Below are positions 25,115 through 34,226 of a stretch of 63,339 nt of DNA, piece after piece. Source of the stretch: Gemmatimonadota bacterium (GTDB taxonomy: Bacteria; Gemmatimonadota; Gemmatimonadetes; Palauibacterales; KS3-K002); the NCBI GenBank assembly GCA_020350785.1, contig CP070722.1:4020692-4084030 (forward strand), given 5' to 3'. Both the position numbers and the translations under genes were made by a program. Below the pieces are notes generated by a model. That model saw only the letters and a program-made list of their open reading frames with translations. It did not search any database and was not told where the DNA came from. Position 1 is the first letter of the stretch. Every line of letters begins with the position of its first letter.

Positions 25115-26296
25115 TCAGAAGACCTCATCTGCGCTGCTGTCACCACGTGTCAACCACCATCTGTCGAGCTGGGGCGCCAGCTCGACGTTCGGCCAGCGCA
25201 CCAGGGCATGAACGTTACCCGGCAAGCGAAGAAAGGCGCGACGGCGCAGGAGCGGACCGATAGCGAAATGGCTGGCGCTGCACAACAGGGCGTCGGCGCC
25301 GAGCTGACGGGCGAGCCGCTCGGCCGTGGCGAGCAGGGCGAGGCCGACGTCGGAGCGGTCCGGCGGGAAAAGCAGATCAGAGAGGGTCGCCACTCGGAGC
25401 CCGGCAAGCCTGGGGTCGCCGTTGCGGCGCGGCCGGCGAACGAAGACGATCCCCTGGAGGCCGGAGTCGTCATGAACGGTCCCGGCCAGGTAGCGGTCCG
25501 TCTCGCTCTTGTGGTATCGCCAGCGATAGTAAGAGCCGTCGCGCGCGGGTGCCGCCTCGATCTGACCGCGGCTGCGGATCCAGAGCTGATCGCAGGCGTT
25601 CTCATCGATCTCCGCGGGTGCGTGCGTGACCAGGCCACTTGTGCGGCCGGTGCGGGCCACCAGCCAAAGCCCCGTTGCCGCCGCCACCAGCGCGCCGCCG
25701 AGCGAGGCCAAGCCCGAGCGCTGGGCCAACCGCAGGGCCGTGTGCACCCAGCGCGGAACACTGGCCAGGCCGACACCGTCGAGGTCGAGGCGCCTGGCGA
25801 ATTGCGCTGGGTTGAGGATTCTGATGTGATTGGGCAGCGCACCGAGATCGGTGAAACCGAGCGCTTGAAACAGCTTCCGAGGAGCGGGCTGCACGACCAT
25901 GGCCAACGCCGTGTCGAGCCGATTTACTGCTTCCTTCAGCACCATGAAGCCGACGGGTCCGTTGCGATGCTCCGGCAGGACCATCAGGCCCTTGATCCAG
26001 TGAGCCGGTGTGAGTTCGCCGGCATGCCAGAGACGGATTGGGATGGTCGTCACGTGCCCGAGGGCGCGCCCGGCGGAAAGAAGTAGAAATGTGGGCGGCT
26101 CTTGGCCTCCGGCGGCCGGGTTCTCGGTCGCCGCGAAGCTGCGCGCTTTGCGCAAACCCGCGGCGCTGGCGTTGGGATCCCAGGTCTGTGCGATGAATTC
26201 GGCAAGCGCAGGCAGATGGTGATCAGCCACGCGGACGACTTCGGTTCTTGCGCCCTGTCCGTTCATCGGAGCTGTCGGGCTCTCCGAGATTACCAA
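25115..26296 (-). CDS. Tandem-GNAT-fold acyltransferase
   Basis: GHVTTIP..L......W...LMVLPEHRNGPVG (GNAT motif A-like), second-domain ARDGSYYRWRY; follows an ACP gene directly. Confidence 0.7.
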   Translation of the reverse strand: MVISESPTAPMNGQGARTEVVRVADHHLPALAEFIAQTWDPNASAAGLRKARSFAATENPAAGGQEPPTFLLLSAGRALGHVTTIPIRLWHAGELTPAHWIKGLMVLPEHRNGPVGFMVLKEAVNRLDTALAMVVQPAPRKLFQALGFTDLGALPNHIRILNPAQFARRLDLDGVGLASVPRWVHTALRLAQRSGLASLGGALVAAATGLWLVARTGRTSGLVTHAPAEIDENACDQLWIRSRGQIEAAPARDGSYYRWRYHKSETDRYLAGTVHDDSGLQGIVFVRRPRRNGDPRLAGLRVATLSDLLFPPDRSDVGLALLATAERLARQLGADALLCSASHFAIGPLLRRRAFLRLPGNVHALVRWPNVELAPQLDRWWLTRGDSSADEVF

Positions 26297-26517
26297 GAGG
26301 CGCCCCGGCTTTGAAGTATCCGCTTGATGGTCGCGACGTTGGTCATCTGGAGGGCGTCATCAGGCGAGAGCGAGACTCCGTAGGTGGACTCGAGCTCCAT
26401 TATGAGGTTCACGTGCCCCATCGAGTCCCACTCCTCGAGTGTGGTGTTGGACGTAGTGTCGTCGATCTTGCCGGGATTCACGCCGAAGATCCGGCCGATG
26501 ATCTGCTCCGGTGCCAT
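26290..26517 (-). CDS. Acyl carrier protein (ACP-B)
   Basis: 75 aa, acidic, WDSMGHVNLI phosphopantetheine serine motif; start overlaps the FkbH stop as TGATG. Confidence 0.9.
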   Translation of the reverse strand: MAPEQIIGRIFGVNPGKIDDTTSNTTLEEWDSMGHVNLIMELESTYGVSLSPDDALQMTNVATIKRILQSRGASW

Positions 26518-28775
26518 CAAGAGACCTCCAGACGAATCCACTTTGGCGGAACCGTCAGCTCATCCGCCAGTGATCTCTGCCAGCGGGTCGCCTGGCCCTG
26601 GGCGCCGAGCTCGGTGAAGCCGTGGCGCGGGTAGAAGTCACGGGCCGGGGCGTTTTTCGCGGTCTCAATGTACTCGCCGATCAACTCCTTGGCACCGGCG
26701 GCCCGGGCGTCCTCGCTGAGGGTGGCCAGAAGTGCCGTCTCGACGCCGTATCCGATTACGCGGCAGCTCATTAGGAAGCTGTCGACGATCCATGTGCCAT
26801 TCTCGGTCCGGACAAGGGCGGTGGCTACGAGACCGTGGTCGCCGAACCGGTCGCGGGCCTTCAACGCGTAGAGTCGGCAGGTCGGATCCCTGGCTACGGC
26901 ACCGAGCTCTCCAGCCGTGTATCGACGAGTAGTGAGATTGAATTGGTTGGTCCGCTGAAAGAGCTGGTGAACGCGAGCCAGGCTGGCTTCGTCCACCTGT
27001 CCGATGCTGACGGCGATCTCCAGCGATTCCAGGTACTCGTCCAGCGATCCGGCGCCCAAACGCGTCTGGTCGCGCTGGCGTTTGGCGCGGTAGAGCTGGG
27101 TCCGGGTTCGGTCCTCCTCGGTGACGGTCAACTTCTGCAGCTGGGGTAGCGCTTCCACGGTGGACCGATAGAGCGACGGATCATTGGGCATCTCGGGCAC
27201 TAACACTTGCGGTAGAGCCTGCCGCATGATCGCACGCTCGTTCGGGTTGTCATCGATGAATATCAACGAGTCGATACCGATGTTCAGCTCTTCGGCAAGG
27301 CTCTTCATGTTCTCTGGCTTGGGGAGCCAGTTGATACGCATCGCGCTGAACACGTCTTCGCGAAGGACCATCGCTTCGTGGGAGCGGACGACTTCTAGAG
27401 CGTCCTCCGGGTTGTTCTTCGAGTTGATTGCGAGAAGAAAGCCGCGCTCGGTCAGTGAGAGCAAGAAGCGCTGGAATTCCTGATACTCGGAGCCCGGTGA
27501 GGTTCCACCCAGCCTGATGCCGTGGGGCCCGTCCTCCCCGACGATCCCGCCCCACAGCGTGTTGTCGAGGTCCAGAACGACGCACTTCCGCGTCAGCCCT
27601 TTGGCCGGAGCGATGTAACGCGTGTAGGCGCGTGCCACCTCACCCACCACCGGTCCGCAGAGCCGCATGGACGCCATGTGACGCATCTTGGGGTTGTCGT
27701 AGCTGCCACCGGGCCGCCGCGCGAAGATCTCGGCCATGTTCAACAGGAACGCGCGAGGAAATCGGCTCAGCCCCTCGGCCAGTTCGGCGTCCAGATCAGC
27801 CAGCCAGGCTGATCTGGACTTGCCGGCACGCCCCCCCAGGATTCCATACGGGTCGGCGAAGGCCGAATGGAAGCCGTGGACGACCAGGACCCCGTCGGAC
27901 CAATCTGAGAATTGGGACGCCGCTGCCAAGATACGCCCGACGGCGGTCGCGCCGGCCTCGTCGAGTTGAGCTTGCGCCGGGGATCCGCTCGTCTCGGTGA
28001 TCAGATCATCGATCGCGACCGAGAGAAAAGCCACCTCGGGATCGAAGCGTCGAAGCCCTGAGTCTTCGCCGATGATCTCCTGCGCCCAGGAGTTGAACGG
28101 TGTGACGTAGATCTCGGGCTCCAGACCCAGGCCGCGGCATTCCAGGTCGAGATAGTGCGCCAAAGGGTCGACGGTAAACGAGCTCATGAAGGCGACCCGA
28201 ACGGGCGGTCCCCCGGACGGCTGGAGGGAGCCGCGCCTGCGCCAGATATAGTGGAGCGTGGCCTGGCTGTCGTCGGCACGGCCCAACTCCGTCAGCAGTC
28301 GATGGGCTTCCGCCGAATCGTGCCCCCGCAAGGCTCGATCGACTGCTGCGCGCAAGAGCCCGGCGTGCCCGGGCTGACGCTCCAGCACACGAGCCAGGGT
28401 CTCCTTGACGCCAGCACCTGGCTTCTCGTAAGGAAGCTCGACGGCCAGTGCGGCGACGGTGTCGGCACCCACGATGTCCGCGTAGCGGCTGGCCAGCTGC
28501 GCCAAGTTGCTGACCCGGGCACCGTTCGAATCTCCCAGACTGGCTCGCACCACCGTATCGACCAGCTTCCCCAACTCGCCGGCCGGGCAAAGCGCCCGCG
28601 CCAATTGCTCGTTGACGAGGAGCCAGGCCACCGCTTCGGAGGGATCCAGCTCCGCGAGCGCCGCGATCGCCTGAGGCGCCGTGGACGCTTTGGTGGCGGC
28701 TTTGACCAGCTGCTCGAGCAGGTCACTCGGCAGCCCGCCCAGGCGACTATCTGTAAGATCTCGTACACTGCTCAC
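26517..28775 (-). CDS. FkbH-like HAD-IIIC glyceryl-ACP forming phosphatase/transferase with N-terminal extension
   Basis: DLDNTLWGG, SKNN, INWLPK, FIDDNP.ER, RTNQFNLTT, DRFGDHG, MSCRV (acyl-carrying Cys). Confidence 0.92.
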   Translation of the reverse strand: MSSVRDLTDSRLGGLPSDLLEQLVKAATKASTAPQAIAALAELDPSEAVAWLLVNEQLARALCPAGELGKLVDTVVRASLGDSNGARVSNLAQLASRYADIVGADTVAALAVELPYEKPGAGVKETLARVLERQPGHAGLLRAAVDRALRGHDSAEAHRLLTELGRADDSQATLHYIWRRRGSLQPSGGPPVRVAFMSSFTVDPLAHYLDLECRGLGLEPEIYVTPFNSWAQEIIGEDSGLRRFDPEVAFLSVAIDDLITETSGSPAQAQLDEAGATAVGRILAAASQFSDWSDGVLVVHGFHSAFADPYGILGGRAGKSRSAWLADLDAELAEGLSRFPRAFLLNMAEIFARRPGGSYDNPKMRHMASMRLCGPVVGEVARAYTRYIAPAKGLTRKCVVLDLDNTLWGGIVGEDGPHGIRLGGTSPGSEYQEFQRFLLSLTERGFLLAINSKNNPEDALEVVRSHEAMVLREDVFSAMRINWLPKPENMKSLAEELNIGIDSLIFIDDNPNERAIMRQALPQVLVPEMPNDPSLYRSTVEALPQLQKLTVTEEDRTRTQLYRAKRQRDQTRLGAGSLDEYLESLEIAVSIGQVDEASLARVHQLFQRTNQFNLTTRRYTAGELGAVARDPTCRLYALKARDRFGDHGLVATALVRTENGTWIVDSFLMSCRVIGYGVETALLATLSEDARAAGAKELIGEYIETAKNAPARDFYPRHGFTELGAQGQATRWQRSLADELTVPPKWIRLEVS

Positions 28776-28987: not shown

Positions 28988-30469
28988 TCAGTCGCCGGCC
29001 CGGTCCGCGCCGAGCAGGGCGAGCAATTCGCGGCGTTTGGCCTTTCCGGATGCCGTGCGAGGCAGCTGGTCGACCTCGAAGACCTCTCTGGGCCACTTGT
29101 ATTCAGGGAGCTTGCCCCTGAGGTGTTTGCGCACTTGAGGCAGGGGGGGTGCCGTGCCCTTGAGGAAGCAAGCTACGATGACCTCGCCCCAGGTTTCATG
29201 GGGCGCCCCGACGACGACGCACTCGTGGATGCCGTCCATCTCGACGATGGCTTCTTCGACCTCCTTGGGGTGAACCCTGTAGGCTCCGGTCTTGATGAGG
29301 TCGCTGCGGCGGCCGGTGATGAATATGAACCCGTCTTCGTCCACCATCGCCAGATCGCCGGTCCAGAGCTTGCCGTCCACGATGACGGCGGCGGTGGCTT
29401 CGGGATCATTCCAGTAACCTGTCATGAGGTTCTCACCCGAAGCTACGATCTCTCCCTCCTCCCCCGGGCTGATGGGCCGTCCGTCCTCCGCCAGCACCTC
29501 CAAAGTCACGCCCGGCATGCCCGTACCGATACTGTTGGGCCGTCCGCGCAACTGTTGAGGTGGCAGGTAGCTGAGCCGTGCACTCGCCTCCGTCTGTCCA
29601 TACATCAGGAAGACTTTGACGTCAGGGAAGAGTCGCTGCAGGCGGTGCAGGTTGGCCGTTGGGAGCGCGCCGCCGGCGCACGTCAGATAGCGCAGCGACG
29701 GTAGCGAGTGGTTCTCCAGGTGGCCCCGCTGAAGTAACAGCGCGAACGTCGAGGGAACACCGCTGAGGCCGGTGCAGGCTCTCTGCTCCAGGCGTTCGGC
29801 GACGTTGACGGGGAAGGCCATGCTACCCAACAGAGCCAGGCTGCCGCCCACTCGGCAATGTGTCTGAAGCAGCGAATTGCCGTAGCTGTAGACGAAGTCG
29901 AGTACCACGCCCACGCGGTCGCTGGCGGTCAGCTCGAGGTACTCGACAATTCCGTCCGTATTGGCTCGTAGAGCCGCGTGGCTCAGTGTTACGCCCTTCG
30001 CTTTGCCGGTGGTGCCGCTGGTGTAGATGATCTGGGCGATATCGGTGCCACCGCCGGCGGGAGACTCTTCGAGTGGGGCTGCCCGACTGAGCTCTTCCAC
30101 CGGGTGGCGCGCCAGATCGGAGAGCTCGGGAGTTGCGCCGCGGCCTGGATCGACGACCAGCAGCTTGGGCTGGCAGTTTGCGGTCACGTGCTCGAGCGCC
30201 CTTGTGGTCGTCCCGGGCTGCAGCCCGACGGCGATCGCACCGACCAGGAGAGTGCCGTAGTAGGCCGCCAGGTAGTCTATCCCGTTTGGAAGCAGCAGCA
30301 AGACACGGTCGCCGGGCTGGATGCCGCTTTCAATCAAGCCGCCCGCGAATCGGCGTGCCCGTCCGAGCACTTCGCCGTAGGTGTATGTCTGGCCGGACTC
30401 CTCGGTGATGAACGGCGACTCCGGGCCCTCTCGCGCCCAGCGGATCAGGTCTTCGGCGATGTGTCTCAT
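28988..30469 (-). CDS. Adenylate-forming acyl ligase (AMP-binding, ANL superfamily)
   Basis: YTSGTTGKAKG, MYGQTEA, TGDLA, GRRSDLIK, PRTASGK; ATGA overlap with the larA-like gene. Confidence 0.92.
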   Translation of the reverse strand: MRHIAEDLIRWAREGPESPFITEESGQTYTYGEVLGRARRFAGGLIESGIQPGDRVLLLLPNGIDYLAAYYGTLLVGAIAVGLQPGTTTRALEHVTANCQPKLLVVDPGRGATPELSDLARHPVEELSRAAPLEESPAGGGTDIAQIIYTSGTTGKAKGVTLSHAALRANTDGIVEYLELTASDRVGVVLDFVYSYGNSLLQTHCRVGGSLALLGSMAFPVNVAERLEQRACTGLSGVPSTFALLLQRGHLENHSLPSLRYLTCAGGALPTANLHRLQRLFPDVKVFLMYGQTEASARLSYLPPQQLRGRPNSIGTGMPGVTLEVLAEDGRPISPGEEGEIVASGENLMTGYWNDPEATAAVIVDGKLWTGDLAMVDEDGFIFITGRRSDLIKTGAYRVHPKEVEEAIVEMDGIHECVVVGAPHETWGEVIVACFLKGTAPPLPQVRKHLRGKLPEYKWPREVFEVDQLPRTASGKAKRRELLALLGADRAGD

Positions 30470-31740
30470 GCGCTTTCCTGTGGTCCAAGCTGGCAGGAGC
30501 CCGCCGGAAAGATGCCGACTCGTGCGCCGTCCCCATGCCTGTTCAGCAGGGCGTGGATGAGCTCATCCCAGTCTCGGTAATGGGGGTAGCCACTCCAGTG
30601 TGTCACGTGGCAATCATTCTCGCTGATACCCGGGGCGAATACGTGGAGGGCCCTGTTGCCCAGGTAGCGTTTGGGCCCGCGAGGCACCCGGTGGAGCGGC
30701 ATGCCCTCGTCGAAGAGGCCGTGATGCCCGCGGCCCTGATGGCAAGCGGCCATGAGCACGGCGCTACCTTCACCCGCCAGGAACTGGGCGCCGCCGGTGC
30801 GCAAAGGGCTGTAGCCGTTCTCGGCCTGAAGAAATTCGCCATCCTTCGGGTACGCATTGCAGATGAGAACATCGAAGCGGCCGGACATGGGAGTTGCGTA
30901 GGCCGAGCGTGCTCTTTGGCAACCCCGCTGGTGCGACTCAAGGGGATCTCCGTAGTAGATCTCACGGATGCGTCGGCTCGTGTCTACGAGACAGTTCACC
31001 GAGAGGTGAAGCGGCAGTTCTCGGGCGACGCGATCGACCTCCATGCGGATCCGATTCCCGTGCAGTTTAGCCACTCCACCGAAGCCCATCATGCCGAGCT
31101 TGTGAAGCCACTCCAGTGCCTCGCGCGCCGCGAGACCTGGAAGTACGATCTTGCCGCCGCCGGAGAATCCGGCGAATGGATTGGGTATGATCGTGCCCAC
31201 GCCAATGCGGATGTCCGCTGCGAGGAAGGGGGGGTCGATGCGCAGCGGGATCTCGCCGAGCATGAGGCTGCTGGTCGCCAGCTCGCCCTGCATATCGTGG
31301 AGGCGGACTCGATAGCGATCGGCTATGGCACCGCCGACCTTGGCCCGGACTTCATCCGGCCGTGGCGCACGGTGCGCGCCCAGCGCCATGACCAGGTCGA
31401 TTGCCGCGGGGTCGATCCCACCCTCGAGGAGCCCGGTCTCAACGGCCGCCAGCACCGCTTCTAGCGCAGCGGGCCGCGTCGGGTCGTCTACGGCGATGGA
31501 GACGCTCGCGCCGGGCGCGACCAATCGGCGCACCGCTTCCCTGAGGCCATCGAGGTCAGGTTCGGCTTCCGCTCCCCAGCCGCTCATCTCGAGGCGCTCG
31601 ACGTCCCACCCGGGCGGAAAGCCGAACCTCTCTGTCTCGGGCGCGCCCTGCCAGGCCCGCCAGGGCAATTCGAGTGACTGATGGTCGGCCGGCCAGCGAT
31701 TCACCCCTCTGCCGCTCCCTGGGGAATCCTCAGATGTCAC
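30466..31740 (-). CDS. LarA-superfamily (nickel-pincer lactate racemase-like) protein
   Basis: VDDPTRP, ALGAHR, P.PFAGFSGGGK..LPG, WLH, YPKD...Q motifs. Confidence 0.85.
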   Translation of the reverse strand: MTSEDSPGSGRGVNRWPADHQSLELPWRAWQGAPETERFGFPPGWDVERLEMSGWGAEAEPDLDGLREAVRRLVAPGASVSIAVDDPTRPAALEAVLAAVETGLLEGGIDPAAIDLVMALGAHRAPRPDEVRAKVGGAIADRYRVRLHDMQGELATSSLMLGEIPLRIDPPFLAADIRIGVGTIIPNPFAGFSGGGKIVLPGLAAREALEWLHKLGMMGFGGVAKLHGNRIRMEVDRVARELPLHLSVNCLVDTSRRIREIYYGDPLESHQRGCQRARSAYATPMSGRFDVLICNAYPKDGEFLQAENGYSPLRTGGAQFLAGEGSAVLMAACHQGRGHHGLFDEGMPLHRVPRGPKRYLGNRALHVFAPGISENDCHVTHWSGYPHYRDWDELIHALLNRHGDGARVGIFPAGSCQLGPQESA

Positions 31741-31987
31741 CGCTGGACCCGCCGAGCTTCCGCTCGATCAGGGCGGCGATAGCCTCGACCGTCTCGAAGT
31801 TGTCGGGCAGCAAGTCATCGTCCTGGACCTCGATTCCGAAGGCGGCTTCCAGGAACGTCACCAGCTCCTCCATCCCCAGGCTGTCGATGAGGCCGGTCTG
31901 AAGCAGAGGTGTCTGGGTGTCTACTTGGAAGTCGTCCGGTAGACCTTTGGACTCTGCCAGGTATGCAATGACCTTCTCCGCAATCAC
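31730..31987 (-). CDS. Acyl carrier protein (ACP-A, DltC-like)
   Basis: GLIDSLGMEEL serine motif, FGIEV..DDLLPDNFET; AGGAG RBS. Confidence 0.92.
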   Translation of the reverse strand: MIAEKVIAYLAESKGLPDDFQVDTQTPLLQTGLIDSLGMEELVTFLEAAFGIEVQDDDLLPDNFETVEAIAALIERKLGGSSGDI

Positions 31988-32016: not shown

Positions 32017-33012
32017 TCAGATATCGCGATCGCCGATCGTCATGTACCAGTTCGCTACGTCCTCGACTCGCGCCTTGCCGAAGAAACCTGCGCCGCCGTA
32101 GCTGACCGTGGCTTGCTCCTCGTCACGCTCCCAGAAGCCCAGGCTTTGGAGGGCGGGGGTCCCCGGGAATGCCTTCTGGACTACGACATTCAAGCTTTGT
32201 GCCCCGGTCGCCGCGGCCCGGCGGGCGGCCGCCAGCAATAGCGCCCTCTCGACGCCGAGGCCGGGGATGCAGGCCATGTCCCGGACCTTCGCGGTGGGCA
32301 CGCCCGGCTCGCTGACGAGATAGCCGACGAGGACCCCATCAACGGATCGCCGGGCCTCGAGCACTGTCGCCGCCACAGCCGGCTGTCGAAGAAAGCGCCA
32401 GCGCAGGAAGCTCGCGGTGCGCCGACCGATCACCGGGTACTGCTGACCCAGCTCCAGATCCAGATCATCGTAATCGGCGCTGAAGTCATCGACTTCCTGG
32501 ATATCGAAGCGCCGACCCCTTGTACCCTGCAAGATCCTGCGGGCTCGCAGGCCGGAGTCCGCTACGGGTGCGAGTAGTCGCGCGAGCCCGCGACCCAGCC
32601 GGCGTTCCAGGATCGCGCCCGCCCGCAAGGGGTAGACCCAACGCTCCATCGTCGAGAGCTGAGCGTGACCCACACGCCGGTGAACGGCCAGCATCGCAGG
32701 CAGGGGGTGGGCGTAGAGAAAAGCATACACGCCCGCATCGACCAGACTCTTGGCGGGGCGCCTCAGCATCAGGGCCGGCCCGAGGCTGCGATGGCCCGCT
32801 GCCACGCTGAAGTCCCCACAATTGAGGGCAGTGACCACTTCGCCATCTACCCAGAAGGCGCGGGGGTAACCAGAAGTGAATCCGACCGGCTCGCCGGAAG
32901 GTTCCTTCAAGATCCAGATTCGGGCCGCGCCGGCTGGGTTGTCATGGTAGAGCCAGCTGAAGCGCGCGCCGGACTCCTGCACGCCTCGGATATCACGAAA
33001 TAGCCGAACCAC
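32017..33012 (-). CDS. Tandem-GNAT-fold acyltransferase
   Basis: VGFTSGYP, DFSVAAGHRSLGPALML, second-domain GRRTASFLRWRF; same family as 25115-26296. True start may be a little upstream. Confidence 0.75.
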   Translation of the reverse strand: MVRLFRDIRGVQESGARFSWLYHDNPAGAARIWILKEPSGEPVGFTSGYPRAFWVDGEVVTALNCGDFSVAAGHRSLGPALMLRRPAKSLVDAGVYAFLYAHPLPAMLAVHRRVGHAQLSTMERWVYPLRAGAILERRLGRGLARLLAPVADSGLRARRILQGTRGRRFDIQEVDDFSADYDDLDLELGQQYPVIGRRTASFLRWRFLRQPAVAATVLEARRSVDGVLVGYLVSEPGVPTAKVRDMACIPGLGVERALLLAAARRAAATGAQSLNVVVQKAFPGTPALQSLGFWERDEEQATVSYGGAGFFGKARVEDVANWYMTIGDRDI

Positions 33013-33364: not shown

Positions 33365-34129
33365 CTACCAGGCTCCGCGCCGGAACAGCATGACCGGCAG
33401 CGTCCGGACCATGATCTTGATGTCCTCAATGGCGGAGCGCCGCTGAATGTACTGCAGGTCGAGGGCGAGCTTCGCCACGACGTCGTCCATCGAGCTGTCG
33501 TAGCGCAGGTTGATTTGAGCCCAGCCCGTGATGCCGGGTCGCACACGCTGACGCTCTCCGTAGCGGTCGACGTGCTCGCGCAGGCGAGCGAATATCTTCG
33601 GCTGTTCGGGGCGCGGTCCCACCAGATTCATGTCGCCGCGCAAGACGTTCAACAATTGCGGCAACTCGTCCAGACGGTACTTACGGAGAATTCGGCCTAC
33701 GGGCGTCACGCGCGGATCGTCCGGCTTTGCCCACACCTGATCGCCCGGCCGATCGTTCACGTACATCGTCCGGAACTTGTACATGCGGAACGGCCTGCCG
33801 CCGCGGTCGTATCGCCGCTTGCAACCCGCCGTCGCTCTGGGGCCGTTGCGTCGATCGAGGCCGACCCGCTGCTGCACGAACAGCATCGGACCCCGCGACG
33901 TCAGCTTGACTATGACACCGATCACCAGCATCAGCGGAAGCGCGGGGATCAAAAGCAGGGCGGCTGCAGCCAAATTGACCATGCGTCGCGCAACCTCTGA
34001 ACCTCGTGTGCCCTGTCTCACACCGGGACGCGCATCCCGTGCCCTGCCATTGCGGTAGCCTGTCCGGGCGTGCGCGGCCCGCACGAGTTCAACCGGGTGA
34101 CGTGTGGTCTGGATGGTCGATGCTTCCAT
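33365..34129 (-). CDS. Priming phosphoglycosyl transferase (bacterial sugar transferase, small monotopic type)
   Basis: Single re-entrant helix, [50 protein letters not shown]. Start 34129 or 34174. Confidence 0.93.
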
Positions 34130-34226
34130 TAGCTCTCTATTTCTTGCCGCACGCTTGGCGACTTTCATTCTCACAGTGTAAGCCAGCTGTCGCTGTTGTT
34201 ACTTTGAGGGCGCACCGCGCTCCGGC

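Follow-up and report, generated by a model that had tools for sequence, protein, structure and literature searches.

A LarA-superfamily protein with asparagine at a catalytic histidine position, encoded in an acyl-carrier-protein cassette of a Gemmatimonadota polysaccharide locus

Enzymes of the LarA superfamily work with a tethered nickel-pincer nucleotide (NPN), and the NPN enzymes characterised so far all rely on two histidines to racemise or epimerise a 2-hydroxy acid in its free form (PMC7583248, PMC11770544), hexonate (gluconate 2-) epimerases being among the members of the superfamily (PMC7583248). In the enzyme of Isosphaera pallida (LarA-Ip), Arg73, Gln295, Lys298, and the two histidines bind the carboxylate of the substrate, Tyr294 hydrogen-bonds the 2-hydroxyl, and the histidine equivalent to His108 serves the D-enantiomer; Lys298 is listed among the LarA catalytic residues. 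Described here is a LarA homolog encoded on the minus strand at 30466..31740 of a 63,339-nucleotide stretch of a Gemmatimonadota genome (assembly GCA_020350785.1, contig CP070722.1, positions 4,020,692 to 4,084,030), referred to in full length as the window; the source genome, G000, is one contig of 4.09 Mb. An initial annotation of this DNA had noticed substituted catalytic positions in the protein and had proposed an altered substrate, possibly a thioester bound to an acyl carrier protein (ACP). Pfam Lar_N matching, an AlphaFold2 model, and codon inspection identify the product as an Asn-type member of an ACP-linked subfamily. With a probability of roughly one half, it is a functional NPN enzyme in a four-gene cassette, within a Wzx/Wzy-type polysaccharide locus, that sets the C2 stereochemistry of a 2-hydroxyacyl group.

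Homologs that depart from the two-histidine pattern have been published. Asparagine replaces His174 in Group 17 of Desguin et al. (2020) and in LarABw and LarASp, for which structures were reported in 2025 (9Q3J, 9Q3K, 9Q2U; PMC12611868). The latter proteins have about 500 amino acids, form octamers, carry Lys for Arg75, and are encoded next to glycolytic or sugar genes; they gave no detectable lactate racemase activity, and one-directional catalysis, also raised in the initial annotation, has been speculated (PMC12611868). LarAH14, LarAH15, and LarAH16 (NF052592, 'NPN-dependent hydroxyacid isomerase'; groups 14-16 of Desguin et al.) likewise lack His174, where they show a gap; they are about 520 amino acids long, and their listed context comprises an NDP-sugar epimerase and a phosphoserine phosphatase, without ACP; an AMP-forming acyl-CoA synthetase accompanies group 15. 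Among the papers searched, none was found to link a LarA homolog with ACP, a thioester, or a polysaccharide locus, and these three are not mentioned in Desguin et al. (2020), its context table, or the 2024 survey (PMC11770544). The subfamily considered here is described in none of the papers searched, and its hallmark motifs are absent from the examined portion of the sequence table of Desguin et al. (2020).

Counted from the first GTG, the open reading frame at 30466..31740 encodes 424 amino acids. The likelier start is the GTG at 31704, which gives 412 amino acids (span 30466-31704) as in the public protein P0001; it is favoured because of the public gene call and the upstream sequence, in which GGGAG precedes a start lying 25 nt past the ACP stop. 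The motifs DDPTRP, GAHR, PNPFAGFSGGGK, WLH, and FLQAEN were all found in the frame, in agreement with the initial reading of retained DPTR, GAHR, SGGGK lysine, and WLH, and Pfam Lar_N (PF09861) scores 94.6 bits against a cut-off of 23.3. Residues are numbered hereafter as in the Lactiplantibacillus plantarum enzyme, LarA-Lp (His108, His174, Lys184, His200, Gln295, Lys298), unless P0001 is stated. In phmmer comparisons with PDB chains, 'iiPNpfAGfSGGGK' pairs with 'leLHykAGySGGhK' of Mar2 and 'iePHlmAGySGGrK' of LarA-Ip, and 'flQAeNg' pairs with 'lyQAqKg', which places Asn opposite the lysine of the Q..K motif. MAFFT and profile alignments return the same columns for both replacements, so the proposal that PNPFAG and QAEN stand in place of His174 and Lys298 was borne out down to the codons: AAT at 31180-31182 for the former and AAC at 30817-30819 for the latter. 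The Tyr294 equivalent is Leu. The ten residues on either side of the Asn that replaces His174 include no His, so the histidine has not been kept at a shifted position in the sequence. The equivalents of Asp72, Arg75, His108 (His111 in the homolog; codon 31372-31374), Lys184 (the cofactor tether; 31150-31152), His200 (which binds nickel; 31102-31104), and Gln295 are retained.

The protein shares with LarA (L. plantarum 5HUQ/6C1W; I. pallida 9EIA/9EID) and Mar2 (6D6Z) the predicted two-domain fold, the equivalents of D72, R75, K184, and H200, the first catalytic histidine, Gln295, and a genome that contains larBCE. It differs from them in being just 18-23% identical, in the changes His174 to Asn, Lys298 to Asn, and Tyr294 to Leu, in a shorter region around the substrate loop (LarA W358), and in context, where ACP, ligase, and GNAT genes of a glycan locus take the place of lactate metabolism. 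Compared with the canonical two-histidine racemase and epimerase groups (LarA, Mar, Hgr, Plr, and GntE), the second histidine and both Lys298 and Tyr294 are missing. None of the NCBIfam LarA equivalogs exceeds its cut-off: LarAH6 scores 157 against 500, LarAH5 144 against 462, and LarA 138 against 460. The AlphaFold2 model, built with 46 homologs, reached a predicted local distance difference test score (pLDDT) of 95.5 and a predicted template-modelling (TM) score of 0.93, and Foldseek aligned it with holo LarA-Lp and LarA-Ip at TM scores of 0.76-0.78 over about 440 columns and both domains. Pfam LarA_C matches neither the window protein nor any of about 66 subfamily members; because the model superposes over both domains, the C-terminal domain is nevertheless predicted to have the LarA fold. 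The gene is intact and kept by purifying selection: the ratio of nonsynonymous to synonymous substitution rates (dN/dS) against three orthologs is 0.14-0.20, and the Asn that replaces His174 is encoded by either of the synonymous codons AAT and AAC.

Four co-oriented genes on the minus strand form the cassette in the order U331, ACP1, LarA homolog, and ligase. U331, recognised by family hidden Markov model (HMM) matches, AlphaFold2, and Foldseek, is a predicted tandem-GNAT acyltransferase of 331 amino acids (32017..33012). ACP1 (31730..31987; 85 amino acids; PP-binding 26.6 bits) carries Ser35 in a DSL motif and lies directly upstream of the LarA homolog. The adenylate-forming ligase (28988..30469; 493 amino acids; AMP-binding at 240 bits plus AMP-binding_C), presumably the loader of ACP1, has a start that overlaps the stop of the LarA homolog by 4 nt, and its core motifs SGTTGKAKG, YGQTE, GDL, and PRTASGK are intact. 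U331 of the window is detected by no Pfam or NCBIfam model, and among its family members Acetyltransf_9 was found in 14 of 24 and Acetyltransf_1 in 9 of 24. Its AlphaFold2 model (pLDDT 94.2) was matched by Foldseek to the Eis-like protein 3n7z (TM score 0.64) and to N-myristoyltransferases, and the modelled fold is the tandem-GNAT type seen in both Eis-like acetyltransferases and N-myristoyltransferases. U331 appears to represent an acyltransferase family that lacks a model of its own and serves only these cassettes. The family is well conserved, with about 350 amino acids and about 40 loci (e.g., L019:535-1596). In loci of the KSB1/Zhuqueibacter type (L021:7140-9647; L011:5180-7642), a protein of 820-835 amino acids without a Pfam match replaces U331 upstream of ACP.

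Conservation of this context was followed, with HMMs built from the window's own partners, in 80 loci from named genomes, all of them metagenome-assembled genomes (MAGs), and 7 from metagenome contigs; the sampled taxa included Gemmatimonadota, KSB1/Zhuqueibacter, Calditrichota, Planctomycetota, Acidobacteriota, Nitrospirota, Chloroflexota, Thermotogota, and others. Distances to partners were counted in the 70 loci whose flanks extended 3 kb or more in both directions. No more than 100 bp separated ACP from the Lar_N gene in 39 loci; ACP lay within 700 bp in 41 and within 3 kb in 52, a number that did not rise within 10 kb. The corresponding counts at the four distances were 24, 26, 34, and 46 for the AMP-ligase and 1, 34, 39, and 40 for the U331 family. 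The Lar_N gene keeps its place next to ACP even at loci whose ligase lies at a distance of over 5 kb. As a control, 20 other Lar_N genes were fetched from the same genomes, 18 of which were paralogs outside the subfamily; ACP, ligase, and U331 were found in the DNA fetched around none of these 18, and ACP within 3 kb accordingly separates the subfamily loci (52/70) from the control paralogs (0/18; Fisher p=4e-9). One true subfamily locus caught in the control batch had ACP, ligase, and U331 all present. The 15 loci with neither ACP nor ligase belong mostly to basal clades (10 Caldilineaceae and 2 Thermotogota, plus L015/L095). Fusions of ACP within the subfamily were sought and none was found; the long reading frames in L072, L078, L035, and L086 are over-extensions or unrelated extensions.

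The surroundings of these loci are those of glycan synthesis. Recurrent neighbours include GT4 and GT2 glycosyltransferases, Wzy (directly downstream in 28 loci), a Wzx-type flippase, polysaccharide deacetylase, DegT aminotransferase, UDP-GlcNAc 2-epimerase (Epimerase_2), and FemAB-like GNAT proteins. In the window itself, a polyprenyl-phosphate sugar phosphotransferase (33365..34174, minus strand; Bac_transf 200 bits, TIGR03025 253 bits) marks the locus as one of polysaccharide biosynthesis.

Supply of the cofactor was assessed through the genes for its synthesis. The initial annotation was right that larB, larC, and larE are all missing from the window; the genome search it called for located them elsewhere in G000, in three separate places, with LarC at 382 bits, LarB at 284 (cut-off 175), and LarE at 313 (cut-off 150), and the window gene is the sole Lar_N gene of that genome. 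A profile of the subfamily against LarC in 301 sampled genomes gave a subfamily-level match in only 2, the other 14 matches scoring like canonical LarAs; this phylum-wide profile was uninformative and was replaced by searching the entire genomes from which the loci had been fetched. LarC was found in 33 of the 40 genomes carrying the ACP-linked form. The subfamily member is the only Lar_N gene in 15 cassette genomes, and LarB, LarC, and LarE are all present in 11 of these 15, including both other Asn-clade genomes. In two Nitrospirota loci, larE-larB-larC lies directly upstream of U331-ACP-Lar_N-ligase (L027:6418-8685 and L046:2860-5153), and in the locus of an Elusimicrobia MAG larB-larC-larE follows the cassette at about 1.8 kb (L014:11045-13220). 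LarC at these three loci is short, with 235-260 amino acids covering about the first 230 of 375 profile positions.

These observations bear on the idea that the gene is decaying, or that its product is a non-catalytic pseudoenzyme no longer needing the cofactor. Two residues listed as catalytic in LarA are indeed replaced, and Pfam LarA_C is blind to the C-terminal domain. Against this stand the low dN/dS, the intact frame, the Asn fixed with synonymous codons, the invariant cofactor ligands, the confident fold prediction, and the retention of larB, larC, and larE in a genome with this single Lar_N gene, so that decay or loss of catalysis is very improbable.

Homolog searches recovered about 66 full-length relatives that match Lar_N only, measure about 410 amino acids, carry the motifs AYPKDxE[FL]LQ and GRGHHG, and are distinct from canonical LarAs; the window protein has both motifs and this length. 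The subfamily is known only from MAGs, of about ten phyla. The equivalents of D72, R75, H108, K184, H200, and Q295 are invariant in 64-66 of 66 proteins. Lys298 is never Lys (Asn in 43, Ala in 9, Thr in 6, and others), and Tyr294 is Leu or Ile. The His174 position holds His in 51 and Asn in 15; the 15 Asn clusters are the closest relatives of the window protein, at 52-100% identity, and always read PN[PA]FAGFSGG. In a tree built from 86 subfamily genes of named genomes and five canonical outgroups, the subfamily came out as monophyletic against canonical LarAs (support 100). The Asn genes grouped in a single Gemmatimonadota clade (support 100), whose long stem measures 1.08 substitutions per site and which is nested inside His-type, ACP-linked clades of Planctomycetota and Vicinamibacterales. 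Because of this nesting among His-bearing clades, the change from His to Asn is read as a single derived event. From these alignments and the tree, loss of Lys298 and Tyr294 defines the whole subfamily, and replacement of His174 is confined to the Gemmatimonadota clade. The two substitutions, which the initial annotation had interpreted together, therefore have separate histories.

The likeness to other Asn-bearing homologs is due to convergence. Group 17 shares with the window protein not only the Asn at the second catalytic histidine, also seen in LarABw/LarASp, but also the Asn at the Lys298 position and the Pro after the first Asn (Group 17 signature D-K-H-N-P-Y-K-H...N; Table S3 of Desguin et al., 2020). 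In contrast, phmmer against 9q3j gave E=0.19, the subfamily profile scores that chain at 95 bits against 200-234 for canonical LarAs, and Foldseek ranked 9q3j and 9q3k well below LarA (E 1e-15, 12-14% identity). The window protein moreover differs from LarABw/LarASp in its 412 amino acids, in keeping Arg75, and in an Asn that arose inside a His-bearing, ACP-linked clade; it also differs from LarAH14/15/16, for which it scores 17.2 bits against a cut-off of 740. Judged by sequence, the Asn clade is independent of the Group 17/LarABw/LarASp lineage and represents a second, independent His-to-Asn replacement in the LarA superfamily. The shared Asn at both positions, together with the shared Pro, hints that the two replacements are functionally coupled.

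The subfamily has thus lost the cationic Lys298 and Tyr294 and has kept everything that holds and tethers NPN. Taken together, the altered substrate site and the cassette make it most economical to propose that a hydroxy acid is loaded, set at C2, and N-acylated onto sugar. The ligase would activate a 2-hydroxy acid and load it onto holo-ACP1. The LarA homolog, with tethered NPN, would move the C2 hydride to C4 of NPN, pass through a transient 2-oxoacyl group, and return the hydride with the C2 configuration set, most likely while the acyl group is a thioester on ACP1. The tandem GNAT would then transfer the acyl group to a free sugar amine made available by deacetylases or DegT aminotransferases that these loci encode. 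On such a scheme, the LarA homolog probably tailors a hydroxy acid that decorates a surface sugar polymer. The conserved partners of this subfamily of about ten phyla would point to a carrier-bound acyl group as a new kind of substrate for NPN enzymes and to the building of stereodefined hydroxyacyl decorations on surface polysaccharides as a new biological role; with four genes plus larBCE, the cassette is small enough to be directly testable in vitro.

Alternatively, the protein could be a racemase or epimerase of the free acid that supplies the ligase with one enantiomer, as alanine racemase does for DltA/DltC, its link with ACP reflecting a shared pathway and not contact. All characterised LarA homologs have substrates of this kind, the carboxylate ligands Arg75 and Gln295 are retained, and basal clades without ACP carry the same replacements of Lys298 and Tyr294. 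Yet the subfamily invariably lacks Lys298 and has lost Tyr294, the link of the gene with ACP is closer than that with the ligase (39 against 24 within 100 bp) and persists at a ligase distance of over 5 kb, and no other Lar_N paralog of the same genomes has ACP or ligase nearby. For these reasons, action on acyl-ACP is preferred, although the preference is weak, and supply of the free enantiomer is considered rather unlikely. As regards the thioester suggested in the initial annotation, the context speaks for it, with ACP at most loci and at none of the control paralogs; the part of the argument drawn from the lost lysine does not hold, as loss of Lys298 alone is no signature of a thioester.

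Several points weigh against C2 tailoring on the carrier. Basal clades without nearby ACP (Caldilineaceae and Thermotogota) also lack Lys298 and Tyr294; this loss therefore predates the ACP link and is no proof of a thioester substrate, and for the same reason Lys298 loss was rejected as a thioester signature. Members of the basal clades probably act on different substrates. Gene adjacency is unable to separate action on acyl-ACP from supplying the ligase with the right free enantiomer. Four Calditrichota MAGs (G324, G329, G333, and G334) have the cassette without larB, larC, or larE, and the ACP-linked gene is their only Lar_N gene (L051, L058, L068, and L070). Since larBCE share one contig in related Calditrichota, a single unbinned contig may explain the absence, which could also be a real loss, with an enzyme running without the known NPN pathway. 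Finally, all subfamily members come from uncultured MAGs.

The basal contexts themselves are distinctive. The Caldilineaceae gene lies between two S9 peptidases, with a class-III aminotransferase and a beta-lactamase-fold protein (L089:6382-14682), and the Thermotogota gene adjoins an ILVD/EDD dehydratase, an enolase-superfamily enzyme, and RidA (L066:6930-12788). A representative search also returned P0152, a protein of 668 amino acids in which a CTP_transf_3 cytidylyltransferase of the CMP-sugar type (7-142) is fused to a full-length subfamily member (240-648). In the Elusimicrobia locus L014, the genes are ordered NeuB, DegT, ACP, ligase, Lar_N, and a PglD-like N-acyltransferase.

Such neighbours invite the suggestion that the substrate is a sugar acid or an activated sugar of the polysaccharide pathway and not an ACP-borne acyl group. 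The hexonate epimerases of the superfamily, the cytidylyltransferase fusion, NeuB in L014, and the dehydratases beside basal Thermotogota members all agree with this suggestion, but it leaves unexplained the near-obligate and often overlapping ACP of the crown clade and the absence of ACP at other Lar_N paralogs, and the fusion partner and glycan genes fit acyl decoration equally well. A sugar-acid substrate is accordingly regarded as improbable.

For the Asn clade, the favoured C2-setting scheme requires adjustment. Only His111 would be left as acid/base to act on the hydroxyl of the substrate, and it would do so on the side used for D-substrates in LarA-Ip; a proton for the opposite face would have to come from water or another residue. 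About 25 other positions were fixed on the Asn stem, including four new histidines (P0001 positions 233, 322, 338, and 369), which could compensate in space for the lost His174. His338 (codon 30691-30693) would be the foremost candidate; it sits in the shortened loop that replaces the W358 substrate loop of LarA, where posterior confidence in the profile alignment with LarA-Ip is low. Since His338 is also present in some basal His-type members, its role is not one of compensation alone. Tentatively, the Asn-clade enzyme might be a single-base hydride shuttle, perhaps aided by His338, that carries out a stereospecific reaction on D-2-hydroxyacyl-S-ACP, such as internal redox isomerisation or C3 chemistry via the 2-oxo form, yielding an unusual acyl decoration, and it might then be the first NPN enzyme to act on a carrier-bound thioester. 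Because close relatives in the same cassette keep His, the two forms offer a natural pair for the question of a one-histidine nickel-pincer enzyme, which the 2025 structures of the other Asn subfamily left open.

A second carrier module, separated from the cassette by a 212-nt gap, occupies 25115-28775 on the minus strand. It consists of an FkbH-domain protein of 752 amino acids (26517..28775; TIGR01686 324.9 bits, cut-off 146.65), presumed to load glyceryl onto a carrier; ACP2 (26290..26541; 83 amino acids, DSM motif, ACP models at E around 6e-6), which is 35% identical to ACP1 around the Ser; and U393 (25115..26296; 393 amino acids), a distant paralog of U331 by the U331-family HMM (4.5e-7) and presumably the acyltransferase of the module. 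The L012 ortholog of U393 matches the same HMM at 2.9e-9. A close paralogy of U331 and U393 was considered and rejected, as the BLASTP value (E=0.06) is not significant. The FkbH protein has an N-terminal extension of about 390 amino acids without a family match. The module should make glyceryl-S-ACP, and its place in a locus without polyketide synthase (PKS) suggests a glyceroyl decoration on the polysaccharide.

FkbH also gives substance to a non-racemising alternative, in which, with one base only, the hydride shuttle of NPN would serve the Asn clade for another reaction on a D-2-hydroxyacyl substrate: an internal redox isomerisation, with the hydride going back to a neighbouring carbon, or C3 epimerisation or beta-elimination by way of the transient 2-oxo intermediate; the substrate might be the glyceryl-ACP of the FkbH module. 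FkbH lies 1.6-1.7 kb downstream of the Lar_N gene in 4 of the 6 Asn-type loci, as opposed to just one His-type locus, and the long stem with its many clade-specific changes fits a change of reaction, as does the non-racemising chemistry that Desguin et al. proposed for homologs without His174 or Lys298. Nevertheless, the Asn clade keeps ACP, ligase, and GNAT in the His-type order, which suggests the same pathway role, and FkbH is absent from the Asn-type loci L009 and L010. Such a change of chemistry is therefore doubtful.

The proposed cassette has parallels in other carrier-based decoration systems. As in D-alanylation by DltA/DltC, a stand-alone adenylating enzyme would load a small dedicated carrier and the acyl group would end on a cell-surface polymer; the transferase differs, being a predicted cytoplasmic tandem GNAT and not an MBOAT protein. 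The best NCBIfam match of the ligase is the exosortase-A-associated ligase TIGR03098, below its cut-off (316 against 592 bits). The rfbKLMNO genes for tetronate N-acylation in Vibrio cholerae O1 presumably follow the same logic of ligase, carrier, and transferase. To our knowledge, no LarA-type enzyme occurs in the Dlt, rfbKLMNO, or TIGR03098 decoration systems. Precedent for a 2-hydroxyacyl group on a stand-alone ACP comes from the FkbH glyceryl-ACP modules of methoxymalonyl-ACP and tetronate pathways, and the neighbour in the window is a true FkbH-domain protein. Polyketide FkbH pathways use NAD- or FAD-dependent enzymes to tailor the 2-hydroxyacyl group on its ACP and deliver it to a PKS, whereas the window locus is without ketosynthase or PKS, its partners are GNATs, and its tailoring candidate is a nickel-pincer enzyme. 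Other neighbours in the window include a Wzz/tyrosine-kinase protein, polysaccharide deacetylases, and VanZ.

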